Assembly (NCBI GenBank): GCA_964016885.1
Contig: OZ024743.1
Span: forward strand, 314,216,001 to 314,280,000
DNA: 64,000 bases
DNA from: Eledone cirrhosa
Lineage: Eukaryota
Direction of reading: 5' to 3'
Shown: positions 2,472 to 62,925 of the stretch, one piece after another
How positions within the stretch are numbered: the stretch's first letter is position 1
How the letters are laid out: each line of letters starts with the position of its first letter
Translations under genes and position numbers: made by a program
Notes under the pieces: model-generated
Database searches by the model: none
The model's input: only the letters and a program-made list of their open reading frames with translations
Told to the model about the DNA's origin: nothing

Positions 2472-2810
2472 ATTAGAAATTGGAATAAATGCTCTGAAAT
2501 AGCGATATATATGTGAATATAGACATAGAATATTCGAAAATATTCTGTATGTTTATAATAAACATTTTGAAGACCTAATCGCTATAGAATAGAATACGTC
2601 ACGTATTACAATTAGATTCTCGATAAAAGCAAGGGAAGTAATCTACGCGTTTCATTCTCGTTAGAAATCATCAGGACTACATATCCAGTGCTTTTATCGA
2701 GAATGACACAGCTAGAGACTTATAGAATACTTAGCTGTGTACAGGAACTGGTTTGAAAGAGCGGTTGCCGGTCCGGCAGAAATTAGAAATTGGAATAAAT
2801 GCTCTGAAAT
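2472..2810 (-). repeat. Inverted copy (about 1.1 units) of the 310-bp HHR repeat
   Basis: Reverse complement of the array unit, preceded by (TA)n. Confidence 0.92.
2638..2680 (-). ncRNA. Minimal type I hammerhead ribozyme (antisense copy)
   Basis: Reverse complement reads gtagtc-CTGATGA-tttctaacgagaat-GAAAC-GC-GTA-gattac. Confidence 0.85.
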
Positions 2811-3005
2811 ATGTTTATTATAAACATACAGAATATTTTCGAATATTCTATGTCTATATTCACATATATATCGCTATTTCAGAGCATTTATTCCAATTTC
2901 TAATTTCTGCCGGACCGGCAACCGCTCTTTCAAACCAGTTCCTGTACACAGCTAAGTATTCTATAAGTCTCTAGCTGTGTCATTCTCGATAAAAGCACTG
3001 GATAT

Positions 3006-3048
3006 GTAGTCCTGATGATTTCTAACGAGAATGAAACGCGTAGATTAC
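3006..3048 (+). ncRNA. Minimal type I hammerhead ribozyme, unit 1
   Basis: Stem I gtagtc/gattac, CTGATGA, stem II ttct-aacg-agaa, GAAAC-GC-GTA; predicted cleavage after 3042. Confidence 0.88.
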
Positions 3049-3315
3049 TTCCCTTGCTTTTATCGAGAATCTAATTGTAATACGTGACGTATTCTATTCT
3101 ATAGCGATTAGGTCTTCAAAATGTTTATTATAAACATACAGAATATTTTCGAATATTCTATGTCTATATTCACATATATATCGCTATTTCAGAGCATTTA
3201 TTCCAATTTCTAATTTCTGCCGGACCGGCAACCGCTCTTTCAAACCAGTTCCTGTACACAGCTAAGTATTCTATAAGTCTCTAGCTGTGTCATTCTCGAT
3301 AAAAGCACTGGATAT

Positions 3316-3358
3316 GTAGTCCTGATGATTTCTAACGAGAATGAAACGCGTAGATTAC
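3316..3358 (+). ncRNA. Minimal type I hammerhead ribozyme, unit 2
   Basis: Same sequence as 3006-3048, +310. Confidence 0.88.
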
Positions 3359-3625
3359 TTCCCTTGCTTTTATCGAGAATCTAATTGTAATACGTGACGT
3401 ATTCTATTCTATAGCGATTAGGTCTTCAAAATGTTTATTATAAACATACAGAATATTTTCGAATATTCTATGTCTATATTCACATATATATCGCTATTTC
3501 AGAGCATTTATTCCAATTTCTAATTTCTGCCGGACCGGCAACCGCTCTTTCAAACCAGTTCCTGTACACAGCTAAGTATTCTATAAGTCTCTAGCTGTGT
3601 CATTCTCGATAAAAGCACTGGATAT

Positions 3626-3668
3626 GTAGTCCTGATGATTTCTAACGAGAATGAAACGCGTAGATTAC
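3626..3668 (+). ncRNA. Minimal type I hammerhead ribozyme, unit 3
   Basis: Same sequence as 3006-3048, +620. Confidence 0.88.
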
Positions 3669-3935
3669 TTCCCTTGCTTTTATCGAGAATCTAATTGTAA
3701 TACGTGACGTATTCTATTCTATAGCGATTAGGTCTTCAAAATGTTTATTATAAACATACAGAATATTTTCGAATATTCTATGTCTATATTCACATATATA
3801 TCGCTATTTCAGAGCATTTATTCCAATTTCTAATTTCTGCCGGACCGGCAACCGCTCTTTCAAACCAGTTCCTGTACACAGCTAAGTATTCTATAAGTCT
3901 CTAGCTGTGTCATTCTCGATAAAAGCACTGGATAT

Positions 3936-3978
3936 GTAGTCCTGATGATTTCTAACGAGAATGAAACGCGTAGATTAC
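3936..3978 (+). ncRNA. Minimal type I hammerhead ribozyme, unit 4
   Basis: Same sequence as 3006-3048, +930. Confidence 0.88.
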
Positions 3979-4245
3979 TTCCCTTGCTTTTATCGAGAAT
4001 CTAATTGTAATACGTGACGTATTCTATTCTATAGCGATTAGGTCTTCAAAATGTTTATTATAAACATACAGAATATTTTCGAATATTCTATGTCTATATT
4101 CACATATATATCGCTATTTCAGAGCATTTATTCCAATTTCTAATTTCTGCCGGACCGGCAACCGCTCTTTCAAACCAGTTCCTGTACACAGCTAAGTATT
4201 CTATAAGTCTCTAGCTGTGTCATTCTCGATAAAAGCACTGGATAT

Positions 4246-4288
4246 GTAGTCCTGATGATTTCTAACGAGAATGAAACGCGTAGATTAC
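4246..4288 (+). ncRNA. Minimal type I hammerhead ribozyme, unit 5
   Basis: Same sequence as 3006-3048, +1240. Confidence 0.88.
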
Positions 4289-59720: not shown

Positions 59721-60241
59721 TAAGCCGTCTGTGCTTTCGTGAAATAAATAAGTTTTTGTTTTTGTGTATGCAAAAATATCTGTTCACGAATATATATATT
59801 AAAATAACAGATTAAAGTTTAAGCAAAGAATCGCTGCTTTCATCCTTAATGGGATCGTCTGAAACTAAAAAAATCCGTCTGTGAACGATGAAGTAAATAT
59901 TTCGAAAACCGTTATCTAATGCAGACACCCAGACATACAGGAAGCGATGTATCTATTTAAAAAGACAGACTAAGAAAATGAGGGAATGTTATGCGACGTC
60001 ATAAGAACAAGTGAGGAATGACATATACCGGAAGTGTTGACATTTGAAATTTTAAAGAAGTGAATATTTAAATAATGTCTTTAATCTTTTAACGAAATTC
60101 AGTAGACAAAAATACCCTCACTTTTTTACTTCGAAAAAGTTACATCTAAGCTGAAAATTTGGTGCTGTTTGGTCCAGCCGTTTGGCGGAAAGTTTGTTAC
60201 CTACATACGGCCGTCAGCTTTATAGTATTTTTTTTTTATTC

Positions 60242-60296
60242 ATTCTGACGACTGAAGACAGACATAACATCTGCCTTCAAGAAAACACTGGTAAAT
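60242..60296 (+). ncRNA. Near-canonical HHR with a stem III mismatch
   Basis: att-CTGACGA-c-tgaagacaga..tctgccttca-a-GAAAA-CACTG-GTA-aat. Confidence 0.6.
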
Positions 60297-60409
60297 TAAA
60301 TAATTATTTTATGTTGTTTATTACATAACTAAATGTATATATATATATATATATATATATATATATATATATATATATATATATATATATATATATATAT
60401 ATATATATA

Positions 60410-61680
60410 TTAGAAACACACAGATACATGCGGACACACACATATATACATGAATGCATCCGCACCCAACTGTGAGTTAAGGGTGCCAACTTCACCGATG
60501 TTGCTCAATGAATGACTGGGACAGACCAATTCAGTTTGAACTAGACTGAACCAGTATCAGAGTTAAAGATACATTATGAAGAGAGAAGAAACATTTAGAT
60601 ATAATTAGTAATAAAATGTATCATACCTAAACTGTTCCTAAATTCCTCGACTACGTAGTTTCGTGGCATAAACAATATATCAAAGATATAGAGTCCTTGT
60701 GGGGACAACTGGAAAGCTTCCATTACTCATATTTCTCGCCTTCTTCACTACCTCTTCTGCGGCCTCGATATGAATACCCCCTCCGCCTCCGTGGTATTTT
60801 CTTCGTGGTTATAAGAGGCTTAGCTCTGTTTCTCGACCGTTATATCGCGTGACTATCTCCCCCTCTGCCTTTTGGGATTCTTTCTCACGTCGTGTAGACG
60901 CGTTCTTGAGACTAGTAAAATGAGGTATCCTCTTGATAAGTCGGCAGACCTCGCAAGGACTCTATATCTTTGATATATTGTTTTTGTTTATGCCACGAAA
61001 CTACGTAGTCGAGGAATTTAGGAACAGTTTAGGTATGATACATTTTATTACTAATTATATCTAAATGTTTCTTCTCTCTTCATAATGTATTTTTAACTCT
61101 GATACTGGTTCAGTCTAGTTCAAACTGAATTGGTCTGTCCCAGTCATTCATTGAGCAACATCGGTGAAGTTGGCACCCTTAACTCACAGTTGGGTGCGGA
61201 TGCATTCATGTATATATGTGTGTGTCCGCATGTATCTGTGTGTTTCTAAATATATTAATAACTCCCTCTGGTCGAGCAATCTTTGAAGTGTGGAGACAAC
61301 TGGAAAGCTTCCATTACTCATACTTCTCGCCTTCTTCACTACCTCTTCTGCGGCCTCGATATGAATACCCCCTCCGCCTCCGTGGTATTTTCTTCGTGGT
61401 TATAAGAGGCTTAGCTCTGTTTCTCGACCGTTATATCGCGTGACTATCTCCCCCTCCGCCTTTTGGGATTCTTTCTCACGTCGTGTAGACGCGTTCTTGA
61501 GACTAGTAAAATGAGGTATCCTCTTGATAAGTCGGCAGACCTCGCAAGGACTCTATATCTTTGATATATTGTTTTTGTTTATGCCACGAAACTACGTAGT
61601 CGAGGAATTTAGGAACAGTTTAGGTATGATACATTTTATTACTAATTATATCTAAATGTTTCTTCTCTCTTCATAATGTA
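60410..61680. repeat. About 590-bp tandem dimer with a 5' inverted partial copy; decayed HHR (GAAAC-TACGTA-GTC); relative at 47050-47385
   Basis: 60700-61090 repeats at 61290-61680; 60410-60690 is the reverse complement of 60960-61250. Confidence 0.8.
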
Positions 61681-61800
61681 TATATATATATATATATATA
61701 TATATTGATGCATACAAAAGGTAAACAGAAATAACAACACAATCGGTACAGTATATGGAAGGTATATATTAGGTTAACGCTTGATATAGCAGGAAGAGGA

Positions 61801-61836
61801 TCTTAACGTTTCGGACGCTAGTCCTTCATCAGGAGA
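61801..61836 (-). ncRNA. Minimal HHR
   Basis: Reverse complement tctc-CTGATGA-a-ggac-tagc-gtcc-GAAAC-GTT-aaga. Confidence 0.72.
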
Positions 61837-62497
61837 AAGAATGAGAAATAAAATAGATTGAGGAGACGGGCGGGATGGAATTTGAAAAAATGCCTTTAGA
61901 TAAAAAGAACTGGTCCATTCATGTTGACATCTCTTTATATATATATATATATATATAACGAAGTGTGGTAAGGAACCAGGTGGACCATAACGCACCAGAC
62001 TATTCGAAACTATGGGTACTAGAATGGGCAATAGGAAAAGAGTCAGGAGCCTGACGTTTCAGAAATAGCTCTCGAAACGGCCGGAGTTTAACCGTCGGGA
62101 TCCTGACCCTTTTCCTATATATATATATATATATATATGTATATGTATCTAATATAGAAATGGCTTCTACAAGCATATTTTGGCATTTATACCTTTTCTG
62201 GTGGTAGGAGTGGATGGTGATTGGGATGGATGGAGGTCTAGTCCTCTAGAAGCCATTTCTATATTAAATATTTATAATCTGCTATGTATTGAGTACCTTA
62301 CTGACTGTGGTTAGCCCCAGTTGAATATATATATATAAATAAATATACACGGGTGTGTATGATTGTGTATAGAAGATTATATTAATGAAAGGAATTCCAA
62401 AATTGTCTGATTTACTCGTTTTATTTACAATCCTTTAAAATTATAATGGTATTAGAATGAAATAGTATGGTAGAATATTAAATGTTAACTGTTAATT

Positions 62498-62534
62498 GAA
62501 CAAGTACTTTCATGCTTTCGCAATCTTCAGGTTC
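62498..62534 (-). ncRNA. Compact 37-nt minimal HHR
   Basis: Reverse complement gaac-CTGAAGA-t-tgc-gaaa-gca-t-GAAAG-TA-CTT-gttc. Confidence 0.82.
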
Positions 62535-62882
62535 ATATTCTGTGGTAACAGTCAAGTTCGAACCTGCGGGTCCAGAATCAGACAGATCCACACAATGACC
62601 GCGACTCGAGCTGTCCGGCGGAGAAACAATTGTAACAAACAATAAATTGAGCTCAGATGCATCACTGATTTTACATTTTCTATTCTATCATTCTCTGCTC
62701 TGTAAGAGCATAGAGTGCTCAACCGGCATACCACCTATGGAAGCATCTTCGCTAACATCAGACACACACACACACACACACATATATATATATATATATA
62801 TATATATATATAAACGGAAAAAATGAAACGAAAGTTCATTTCTCACTCTTAGTAGGGCTGTTACTTAAATATAAGTATGTAT

Positions 62883-62925
62883 ACGTCGCTGACGATAGCT
62901 AATACGCTTGAAACTAGTACAGCGT
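62883..62925 (+). ncRNA. Minimal HHR of the 7021 family
   Basis: acgtcg-CTGACGA-tagctaatacgctt-GAAAC-TA-GTA-cagcgt. Confidence 0.75.

Follow-up and report, generated by a model that had tools for sequence, protein, structure and literature searches.

The window analysed here, a 64,000-nt stretch of Eledone cirrhosa DNA, contains 42 curated hammerhead motifs in 17 families, which confirms the initial annotation's claim of more than 30 motifs from many families. Twenty-three are intact type I hammerheads and 19 are lesioned or variant, the latter comprising 15 full-length copies with one or two lesions and four copies of a family with a changed core position 4 (U4A). The density of roughly one per 2 kb claimed earlier also holds, with one motif per 1.5 kb for all 42 and one per 2.8 kb for the intact ones, seven of which belong to one array of 310-nt units. 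Four families are non-coding tandem repeats of 310, 591, about 420-440 and 557 nt:

2472..4731, both arms: 310-nt tandem retrozyme inserted in (TA)n, seven intact hammerheads, stem III ACGCGT
7020..7761, plus: ACTAGT tandem retrozyme, units 440 nt apart; of its two motifs, C3 7473 is intact and C3 7033 has a stem II mismatch
47061..47385, plus: 591-nt retrozyme in a decayed copy, G5C in the core at 47237
52826..53751, both arms: ACTAATTAGT retrozyme (about 557-nt family), 53071 (minus) intact, 53622 (plus) with C3U, also a partial copy near 53139
60410..61681, both strands: 591-nt tandem retrozyme, partial minus arm (long end) and two plus units (short end)
62810..63140, both strands: ACTAGT retrozyme copy, short inverted arm, lesioned hammerhead at 62889 (plus)

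Six families are linked to the RT and GIY-YIG ORFs of PLEs and are present in the window as truncated ends (types as placed by motifs):

22661..25629, both strands: PLE-A, 5'-truncated Neptune-type PLE, broken RT/EN coding at 22919-24465 (plus), 3' hammerhead at 25512 that has lost stem II, left side with a short inverted arm
31259..33771, both strands: PLE-D, truncated Hydra-type PLE, U4A motifs at 31415 (minus) and 33715 (plus), broken coding at 32474-33334 (minus)
34074..34390, both strands: PLE-A 3' ends head-to-head, lesioned U3-A8 hammerheads at 34171 (minus) and 34250 (plus)
35819..36712, plus: PLE-D 3' end, U4A motif at 36656
37138..38066, both strands: PLE-C 3' ends head-to-head, intact hammerheads at 37314 (minus) and 37818 (plus), stem III AGAACT/AGAATT, ORF end remnant at 37522-37650 (minus)
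38120..38470, both strands: PLE-A 3' ends head-to-head, lesioned hammerheads at 38221 (minus) and 38300 (plus)
39545..40446, plus: PLE-D 3' end, U4A motif at 40384 with G12 changed too
46696..46890, both strands: PLE-F, Hydra-type, 3' ends head-to-head, 46823 (minus) with G5C, 46841 (plus) intact with a 4-bp hairpin as stem III
52455..52790, both strands: PLE-A 3' ends head-to-head, intact U3-A8 hammerheads at 52559 (minus) and 52617 (plus), stem III ACCGGT/ACCAGT
55172..58853, both strands: PLE-B, 5'-truncated Hydra-type PLE, broken RT thumb/EN at 56207-57457 (plus), hammerheads at 55500 (minus) and 58673 (plus) with a 101-nt stem II region and stem III ACGATCGT, ends at +209 and +61
62338..62560, minus: PLE-E 3' end, Neptune-like, intact hammerhead at 62530, stem III AGTACT

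The window also holds solitary motifs and small pairs:

8784..9090, both strands: head-to-head pair, stem III ACACGTGT, 88-nt stem II region, C3 at 8935 (minus) and 8939 (plus), stem I cut by the inversion junction
19262..19318, plus: intact hammerhead, stem III ATATATAT, C3 at 19268
26797..26875, plus: lesioned hammerhead, stem III ACCATGGT, C3 at 26803, G5 changed
30155..30896, both strands: head-to-head pair, stem III ACATTGT, 30246 (minus) intact, 30805 (plus) lesioned, one long and one short end
33906..34030, both strands: palindrome of two hammerhead 3' halves (stem II part, GAAA, stem III, cleavage site), outside the 42-motif count
42891..42964, plus: intact hammerhead, 7-bp stem I, stem III ATACGCAT, C3 at 42898
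60232..60318, plus: lesioned hammerhead of the ACCACTGGT family, C3 at 60245
61795..61838, minus: hammerhead with a stem I mismatch, stem III ACGT, C3 at 61832

The descriptor used was for type I hammerheads (CUGANGA or UUGANAA, then GAAA and UH, three helices, a stem II region of at most 120 nt), with no requirement for a palindromic stem III. It gave 21 strict hits, from which 54626 was dropped as doubtful and without family, and to which 46841 (a longer stem III) and 60933 and 61524 (stem II bulged) were added to reach the 23 intact motifs. This density was not matched in the shuffle control that the initial annotation called for: for each of three block sizes, 200 dinucleotide shuffles were run, with means of 0.26-0.34 hits (maximum 3). 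The strict descriptor gave no hits on the reversed or the complemented window. An exactly palindromic stem III was found in 15 of the 21 hits, as opposed to 0.02-0.05 such hits in the shuffles, in agreement with the proposal that these palindromes argue against chance. Two of the stem III strings reported, AAGTACTT and AACGTT, extend into A14 and H17 and so are not stem III alone; the outer limits given for the motifs, 2638 and 62925, are exact ends of stem I. The covariation claimed for the stems was borne out for the one family checked, ACTAATTAGT, where 98.7% of cells are paired in 11 copies (31-51% in slid controls) and stem II is 100% paired, with two pairs showing compensatory changes; three helices with compensatory variation are also found among the 310-nt family variants. 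Twenty-three motifs have the core boxes in the order expected of type I, namely CUGANGA (or the U3-A8 form), then GAAA, then UH. By core and helices the intact motifs are type I hammerheads, predicted to be self-cleaving. No Rfam hammerhead family was among the best 150 of 192 matches, and a scan for type II and III hammerheads gave no hits. Six of eight GAA-ATATATAT matches were rejected as ribozymes, being without an upstream core and running into (TA)n or AT-rich sequence, and a ACTCGAGT copy at 51985 without stem I was left out of the count.

It had also been suggested that diverse non-autonomous elements, which protein-based annotation would miss, fill much of the inter-microsatellite DNA. 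Elements do cover about 37% of the window (rough intervals). The term non-autonomous is appropriate for four of the 17 families, the tandem retrozymes, and not for six, which are pLTR ends of protein-coding PLEs; seven are without assignment. Moreover, four of the six coding PLE families leave coding fragments in the window, and thus protein annotation would catch part of this DNA.

The link to PLEs was established from fetched copies. The ACCGGT motif of PLE-A lies 973-1,145 nt downstream of a 775-aa RT and GIY-YIG ORF in eight of ten copies, and upstream in one. This ORF has a Pfam match to GIY-YIG, with RVT_1 at 28.5 bits, just under the cut-off, and its translation contains GxKF, DKG, a CX2-5CxxC linker and CCHH in the endonuclease, following the definitions of PMC8557442. 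PLE-A is Neptune-type as placed by these motifs rather than by an RT tree, and Nematis may be its other placement. The ACGATCGT motif occurs on both sides of 734-830-aa ORFs (PLE-B) that gave no Pfam match and whose RT/endonuclease identity was judged by motifs; the U4A motif flanks a 645-aa ORF and the 46841-type motif a 758-aa ORF. The AGAACT motif is found about 200 nt past the PLE ORF end in four of ten copies, and AGTACT 3' of a Neptune-like ORF in one locus. PLE-B, PLE-D and PLE-F have RWR (RWK-like), DKT, a CxCX5C linker and (TA)n targets and are without CCHH, and by the motifs in section 11 of PMC8557442, not by a tree, they belong to the Hydra clade. Hammerheads at both ORF ends (pLTRs) were found in L130, L132, L157 and L242.

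Both kinds of element are already known. According to the parts of PMC4209133 compared (Cervera and de la Pena 2014), metazoan PLE pLTRs carry minimal type I hammerheads which, as here, have a palindromic stem III, the U3-A8 variant, an extra base after A9 and an association with RT and GIY-YIG ORFs, with many families per genome and mostly solo truncated copies; in contrast, our set includes stem II regions of up to 101-115 nt and a family-wide U4A core. Likewise, the 310- and 591-nt units, which are non-coding, tandem and carry one type I hammerhead each, match the metazoan non-LTR retrozymes (Cervera and de la Pena 2020, PMC7229834; Li et al., bioRxiv 10.64898/2026.07.22.740005), also in a GC content below 50%, a rod-like predicted circle and co-existence with PLEs, so far as the portions of these papers compared extend. 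The U.U mismatch at the base of stem II resembles axolotl HHR_Amex2, and this U10.1.U11.1 mismatch and the U3-A8 covariation are within the natural variants given, along with U4C, in the part compared of Perreault et al. (2011, PMC3088659). In those same portions of PMC7229834 and Li et al., the link of retrozymes to PLEs is argued from co-occurrence and pLTR similarity, and a word search of both main texts returned no inverted or head-to-head arrays or tails. Compared with these retrozymes, the arrays described here, known from DNA alone, carry a PLE insertion signature directly.

The 310-nt element shows this signature best. Its minus arm has 1.1 units (2472-2811, long end) and its plus arm 6.2 identical units (2811-4731, short end), with C3 at 2674 (minus) and 3012, 3322, 3632, 3942, 4252 and 4562 (plus). 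Two successive units form a double hammerhead in the predicted minimum-energy structure, and the circular monomer has a predicted folding z of -4.8. The 591-nt dimer, with intact U3-A8 hammerheads at 60933 and 61524 and stem III ACTACGTAGT, is also predicted to fold as a double hammerhead; the predicted folds of the ACTAGT pair and the partial 557-nt pair gave no clean one. In the window and the first 102 Mb of one contig, 47 of 52 elements of the 310-nt family are two-armed, three are single-armed and two extend past the retrieved sequence. All 46 two-armed loci with both ends visible pair a short end with a long one; 40 of 51 loci had been selected by the long-end pattern, and among the 11 not selected by ends ten are two-armed, 10/10 with a short and a long end. 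The same rule was observed in 8/8 pairs of the 591-nt family, 5/5 of PLE-A, 3/3 of PLE-B with both ends measured, 13/15 of PLE-D and 11/12 of PLE-F, and an inverted truncated copy with a tail at one end is present in PLE-A, PLE-B, PLE-D and PLE-F. Each family has two fixed outer end points, one per arm. Inner junctions fit a uniform spread, with 2/92 within 5 nt of the cleavage site against 3.0 expected. The flanks of the 310- and 591-nt insertions are (TA)n, where target-site duplications cannot be read.

Head-to-head 310-nt arrays in (TA)n carry the PLE tail signature of one short and one long end, and two-armed retrozyme arrays of this kind are apparently absent from the parts of the literature compared. 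PLE insertions are described with an inverted 5'-truncated copy, a tail at one end and (TA)n targeting (Craig et al. 2021, PMC8557442; Arkhipova et al. 2013, PMC3846280; Frangieh et al. 2024, PMC11167929, in the parts compared), and the two internal RT start sites of the anole PLE, with both strands cleaved and extended in vitro (PMC11167929), have their counterpart in our two end points. Unlike the optional 30-40 bp tail given in those parts, the short and long ends are nearly obligate here, their gap is about 35 to 160 nt depending on the family, and the two arms, both of which can hold several units, vary in length independently. It is likely that the motifs are terminal ribozymes of many PLE families and of non-coding tandem retrozymes set head-to-head in (TA)n, inserted by a PLE RT-endonuclease that primes on both target strands. 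Tandem transcripts would self-cleave as double hammerheads via the palindromic stem III, and ligation would close the retrozyme monomers into circles. Both strands of the (TA)n target would be nicked by the PLE protein, with two internal sites of the RNA each serving as the start of one cDNA; in the 310-nt unit these sites would lie at about +130-139 and +163-172 past the cleavage site. The two RTs would then proceed independently of each other, on a retrozyme template round the circle, until each stops at random, and the two cDNAs would be joined at short microhomologies.

An inverted arm could also arise from a single cDNA whose end folds back and copies itself, a model proposed for PLE palindromes in the part compared of PMC3846280. 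Haplotypes common to both arms, a unit-specific variant found in the outermost unit of both arms of L052 and the palindromic centres of many short window elements would agree with it. However, a copy cannot exceed its template, and fold-back thus predicts a long-ended arm at least as long as its partner in every locus. In 24 of 46 loci the short-ended arm is the longer, by more than one unit in 18; the long-ended arm is longer in 21, with one tie. Arm lengths (Spearman 0.27, p 0.07), with a mild departure from exponential (KS p 0.04), behave as independent, an observation that favours priming on both strands over fold-back. Fold-back is quite unlikely, and already disfavoured for the 310-nt family.

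Variants within the arrays bear on the template. In 34 of 52 elements they are present in essentially all units, and ten variants confined to a single locus among the 52 compared, out of roughly 1,500 insertions, occur in both arms; this uniformity suggests a monomer bottleneck. Within the 43-nt motif, all seven locus-wide substitutions preserve core and pairing, as opposed to none of eight rare ones (Fisher p 1.6e-4; 28-37% expected by chance), under a tolerance rule fixed after part of the data was known and with rare variants identical to inherited ones excluded from the rare class. This pattern, apparently not reported in the portions of literature compared, points to selection on RNA. Six elements (L041, L042b, L043, L052, L180 and L185) are mosaic for a variant without clean periodicity and are not explained by one monomer circle per insertion. 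They would suit PLE-driven insertion from uncleaved linear multimers, with array length and uniformity due to slippage, unequal exchange or conversion of DNA instead of an RNA circle. Donor arrays are uniform, so linear copies would be too; uncleaved RNA is the main anole PLE substrate in vitro (PMC11167929), and local tandem amplification is allowed by Li et al. (both in the parts compared). Nevertheless, copying from a linear template can preserve or drop units but do nothing more, arrays with few single changes have locus-wide variants in both of their inverted arms, and the inheritance of only ribozyme-compatible variants indicates selection on RNA, so that we regard this origin as unlikely. 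In vitro, the anole PLE inserts without need for cleavage (PMC11167929, part compared), an observation that counts against priming from cleaved circles, our preferred explanation. Nine candidate regions did not yield the helper PLE of the 310-nt family: eight align within shuffle range, and the ninth, PLE-F, has in common with it the ribozyme core and stem II alone.

The suggestion that active copies could cut pre-mRNA raises a host role, for these or other read-through transcripts. The very high density would favour it, as would the excess tandem units predicted to be unpaired in read-through (3322 and 3632 free, 3012 masked). On the other hand, 19 of the 42 motifs are lesioned or variant, the core is freely struck by rare changes, all assigned motifs are explained as element ends, and the 80 kb to each side gave no recognisable host exon. 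The antisense arm is always met first and is predicted to pair with the matching sense ribozyme, and motifs with a palindromic stem III need a second copy, which speaks against cutting of a read-through transcript by most copies. Maintenance for the host is thus very improbable; the majority of copies in the window are truncated remnants that show no evident function for the host.

Genome-wide, hammerhead density is about 0.14 per kb, and 58,535 exact matches to seven family motifs (full or half) were counted: 15,495 for PLE-D with A4 (97 with U or C), 14,535 for PLE-C, 9,254 of the PLE-B 3' half-motif, 6,032 of the 591-nt 5' half-motif, 5,887 for PLE-A, 4,033 for the 310-nt family and 3,299 for PLE-F. 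From 746 plus-strand long-end junctions into (TA)n, we estimate roughly 1,500 insertions of the 310-nt family, the largest arrays among the 52 elements above reaching at least 20.9 units; the dispersed copies of the 310- and 591-nt families fit retrotransposition. The estimated density is far higher than the 2,000-9,000 per genome in the part compared of PMC4209133, a rough comparison because descriptors differ. The PLE-D motif lacks the U at core position 4 of type I hammerheads; all three helices can form, in a predicted fold (-5.5) lying above the minimum-energy one (-8.8), and the motif is classed as hammerhead-like. U4A is absent from the main text of PMC3088659 by word search, and a Hydra-type PLE with such a core is apparently missing from the parts of the literature compared. 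A broader proposal, to which we give somewhat less than an even chance, combines asymmetric twin priming by one RNP at two fixed RNA sites, both polymerases rolling independently on circular retrozyme RNA and leaving two-armed arrays as a record of the mechanism, with a genome holding some 2-7 x 10^5 hammerheads, which would be the densest set we found reported. In it the U4A core, carried by the most numerous exact motif of the genome, would be either a natural variant that is new and active or the sign that a PLE can reach more than 15,000 copies with a crippled ribozyme. Elsewhere in the genome, the 26803 motif has an intact relative in L139, the 61832 motif one with stem I paired in L018, and the ACTAGT family a long array in L115.

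The DNA of the window is AT-rich animal sequence with numerous (TA)n runs, taken from an assembly of 3.0 Gb, and contains 70 CTGANGA boxes against 21-25 in shuffled versions. We used a type I descriptor that accepts a U3-A8 core, one additional base after A9, a 10.1-11.1 mismatch and a distance of at most 120 nt between the boxes. It returned 21 matches, whereas shuffles, the control proposed in the initial annotation, gave 0.26-0.34. Reversed and complemented windows gave none with this descriptor, and a scan of the window for type II and type III topologies returned no match. 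An earlier, stricter descriptor found only 5 motifs because it required the 10.1-11.1 pair. Removing one doubtful descriptor match and adding three intact motifs beyond the descriptor limits led to a curated set of 42 motifs in 17 families: 23 are intact, 15 are lesioned homologues, and the other 4 belong to the U4A family. The hammerhead landscape of the window is therefore real. The initial annotation, which had proposed more than 30 motifs between 2638 and 62925, was right in both count and limits, but its list lacked the U4A family. Stem III is exactly palindromic in 15 of the 21 descriptor matches. In the one family that was aligned, all 11 copies keep stem II paired, and two of its pairs show compensatory changes. 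The candidates at 54626, 9953 and 27894 were discarded as probable chance matches, and 8341 and 51985 were kept out of the count. The matches listed for Rfam were microRNA-type chance matches on palindromes and (TA)n and were rejected.

The window is only mildly richer in hammerheads than the genome background. Thirty-six regions of 10 kb, placed at round coordinates, contained 52 strict matches (0.145 per kb; 3.6 matches in shuffles), with a bootstrap range of 0.075-0.247 per kb and a single region supplying 15 of them; the 160 kb flanking the window contained 34. By extrapolation, the genome would hold 2-7 x 10^5 motifs. Exact genome matches to seven family patterns, some of which span just part of the motif, summed to 58,535, and every reversed-pattern control gave 0. 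Counts reported with other descriptors are about 6,000 for a coral, 5,000 for a mussel and 126,247 for the axolotl (PMC7229834), and 9,000 for Xenopus tropicalis (PMC4209133). Provided that this estimate of density is right, many natural hammerhead variants (100-nt stem II, U3-A8, U4A, U4C) can be drawn from this genome, and also long inverted repeats, which would give double-stranded RNA when transcribed.

Six of the 17 families are the pLTR ends of protein-coding Penelope-like elements (PLEs), here called PLE-A to PLE-F. PLE-A, with stem III ACCGGT and a U3-A8 core, encodes a 775-aa RT plus GIY-YIG frame that is open in many copies, is preceded and overlapped by a 409-aa frame, and has Neptune-type protein motifs. 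In one PLE-A copy (L085:1408-4871) the RT frame overlaps the 409-aa frame in the -1 frame, with a T6A run inside the overlap, and a programmed frameshift at this site is possible. PLE-B has stem III ACGATCGT and 101-107 nt between the boxes; PLE-B, PLE-D (the U4A family) and PLE-F (46841) share RWR, DKT and CxCX5C, which are described as marks of the Hydra clade (PMC8557442). The motifs of PLE-C (AGAACT) and of PLE-E (AGTACT, a single locus) lie downstream of the end of a PLE ORF. The palindromes at 34074, 38120 and 52455, which are short and MITE-like, each consist of two PLE-A ends, both truncated, joined back to back. Earlier work had already described tandem retrozymes, the presence of hammerheads in the pLTRs of PLEs, and solo truncated copies from many families. 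Links to PLEs based on proximity were not accepted for the ATATATAT-, ACCTCTGGT- and ACATTGT-type motifs.

Local rearrangements were also observed at PLE ends. The 3' region of PLE-B contains a 234-nt duplication (55486-55954, 58218-58687) that repeats only stem I and the first core box, and the PLE-D end is doubled by a local duplication of about 2 kb (34802-36758 and 38583-40487, 93% identity). Elsewhere in the genome (L235/L236, G000:C1:83.68-83.70 Mb), an array of twelve units of about 1,080 nt carries the PLE-F long end and its (TA)n flank within every examined unit; it looks like DNA-level tandem amplification, in contrast to the retrozyme arrays.

Four families are non-coding and tandem, with units of 310, about 420-440, 557 and 591 nt, which leaves seven of the 17 families without assignment. 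A helper PLE for the 310-nt unit was searched for among the PLE candidate regions and was not found. The Hydra-like endonuclease upstream of a 557-nt array (L028) is a separate insertion, as (TA)n lies between them.

The anatomy of the 310-nt retrozyme was analyzed in 52 elements from 51 loci, namely the window, 10 loci found by ribozyme motif and 40 by long-end junction. In 47 of the 52 a minus array is followed by a plus array, and the 3' ends face outward, into (TA)n. Of the other five, three have a single arm and two extend past the fetched DNA. Both ends were seen in 46 elements, and in every one of them one arm ends near unit position 126-139 from the cleavage site and the other at 163-172. 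In the 36 picked by their long end, information comes just from the short end of the partner arm. The rule of one short and one long end was also followed by the 591-nt family (8/8), PLE-A (5/5, ends +76/+141), PLE-B (3/3, ends +61/+197-209), PLE-D (13/15) and PLE-F (11/12), and by lone window pairs of four further families. This anatomy is that of the PLE inverted copy plus tail (PMC8557442, PMC3846280). PMC11167929 attributed it to a pair of internal sites at which RT starts, while both strands of the target are cleaved and extended. In the compared parts of the literature's main texts there was no match for two-armed tailed retrozyme arrays or for the near-obligate rule that each arm uses one of the start sites. 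The target flanks are (TA)n, where target-site duplications are unreadable. The string TTTCTAA before (TA)n ends the long ends of the 591-nt family, of PLE-A and of some 310-nt arms (60410, 52788, 2472); it is possibly a common start signal and a lead to PLE-A as helper.

None of the outer ends of the 310-nt arms lies at the cleavage site, and the inner junctions are evenly distributed, with only 2 of 92 near it; thus, the cleaved linear end is not the priming site. Arms have a mean length of 4.9 units. If one cDNA folded back and was copied, the short-ended arm could not be the longer one, but it exceeds its partner in 24 of 46 loci, which argues against fold-back of a single cDNA. Two independent syntheses, one on each strand, would account for such arms. 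Since a young tandem family offers an unbounded template, its arm lengths can discriminate between fold-back and priming on two strands; truncated PLEs are less clear in this respect. Both the mobiliser of animal retrozymes and the origin of inverted, tailed PLE insertions are now testable from genome sequence alone.

Arrays are nearly uniform, with locus-wide variants in 34 of 52 elements, and 10 variants confined to one locus each are present in both of its arms. This uniformity is consistent with passage through a monomer bottleneck and subsequent rolling reverse transcription, the route that PMC7229834 proposes for retrozymes. However, six mosaic arrays are inconsistent with a single circle and require template switching, multimer templates or later exchange; no clean case of the periodic variants indicative of multimeric circles was seen in the 310-nt elements.

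Within the 43-nt ribozyme, each of the seven inherited substitutions either affects N7 or loop II or leaves a pair intact or adds one, whereas all eight rare substitutions disrupt the core or pairing (p = 1.6e-4, indicative only, as the tolerance rule was set with part of the data already seen). This contrast, which had no match in the compared main texts or parts of them, suggests that the retrozyme needs its ribozyme. The minimum-energy structure of two consecutive 310-nt or 591-nt units is a double hammerhead with palindromic stems paired between copies. The ACTAGT pair has a lesion in its first copy and does not form this fold. Cyclic contigs of 340 nt in two sequencing runs of unrecorded kind (X1, X2) were rejected as expression evidence, since tandem DNA also gives them.

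The PLE-D motif is laid out as type I: stem I has 5 bp, stem II is U.U plus 3 bp, stem III is a hairpin, and the core reads CAGAAGA. Exact genome copies number 15,495 for A, against 97 for U or C. In PLE-F, a sister of PLE-D at 52% protein identity, the same layout lies at the same place; the stems differ in sequence and the core is canonical, which makes the U4A motif a hammerhead homologue that may or may not cleave. The hammerhead is not the minimum-energy fold of U4A, PLE-F or 310-nt monomers. In a scan of 584 kb for single core substitutions U4A was the commonest, with 6 matches against 0.25 in shuffled sequence; U4C, G12U and A14U were recurrent; G12U and A14U were seen in members of a family whose remaining copies are intact. 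U4A does not appear in the main text of PMC3088659, and a literature search for a hammerhead with this core string returned nothing among the texts it covered. With the U4A family, nature has provided a test of whether PLEs themselves depend on cleavage.

Other deviating motifs were observed. The family with stem III ACAATTGT has a U4C core in three matches (background and flank loci) and a canonical core in one locus (L113), and its 3' half is present at 62623. A palindromic element at 25656-26301 has a hammerhead-like layout with two core deviations (CAGTTGA), identical in both arms and in another locus (L033), and may be a second non-canonical family. In a two-armed family (1110-1952, 63388-64000) the distances from a CTGAYGA box to the ends are about 20 and 75 nt, leaving half a core at the terminus with no GAAA downstream.

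Concerning host RNA, no host exon was recognised among 100 open frames from the window and 160 kb of flanks (selected by length from 241, known transposon frames omitted), a search that short exons escape; the frames gave only transposon domains and one weak zinc-finger match. Whichever the direction of a read-through transcript, the antisense arm comes first. When 2472-3700 was folded, the antisense arm paired with the first of the sense ribozymes and left later ones free, so that solo pairs would be masked; those with palindromic stem III additionally have no dimer partner. Cutting is predicted only for tandem units in excess of the masked ones, of which the plus-strand 310-nt array has five. 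A simple strand count over introns would be uninformative, since every insertion contributes both strands.

The window also contains the following elements.

749-1132, minus strand: GIY-YIG fragment starting at a (TA)n run
6951-7008, minus strand: weak tRNA-like match (30.3 bits) adjoining the ACTAGT pair
9058-11321, minus strand: broken LINE-type RT region, one of two
13659-17930, minus strand: broken Helitron with Helitron_like_N and PIF1 domains
20148-21469, open frames on both strands: 66-nt repeat, twenty copies, 98% identity
43363-45202, minus strand: broken LINE-type RT region, the other of the two

Pfam matches to the frames of the 66-nt repeat had no passing stretch. The GIY-YIG fragment is probably a further truncated PLE, and the tRNA-like match is probably the head of a SINE.
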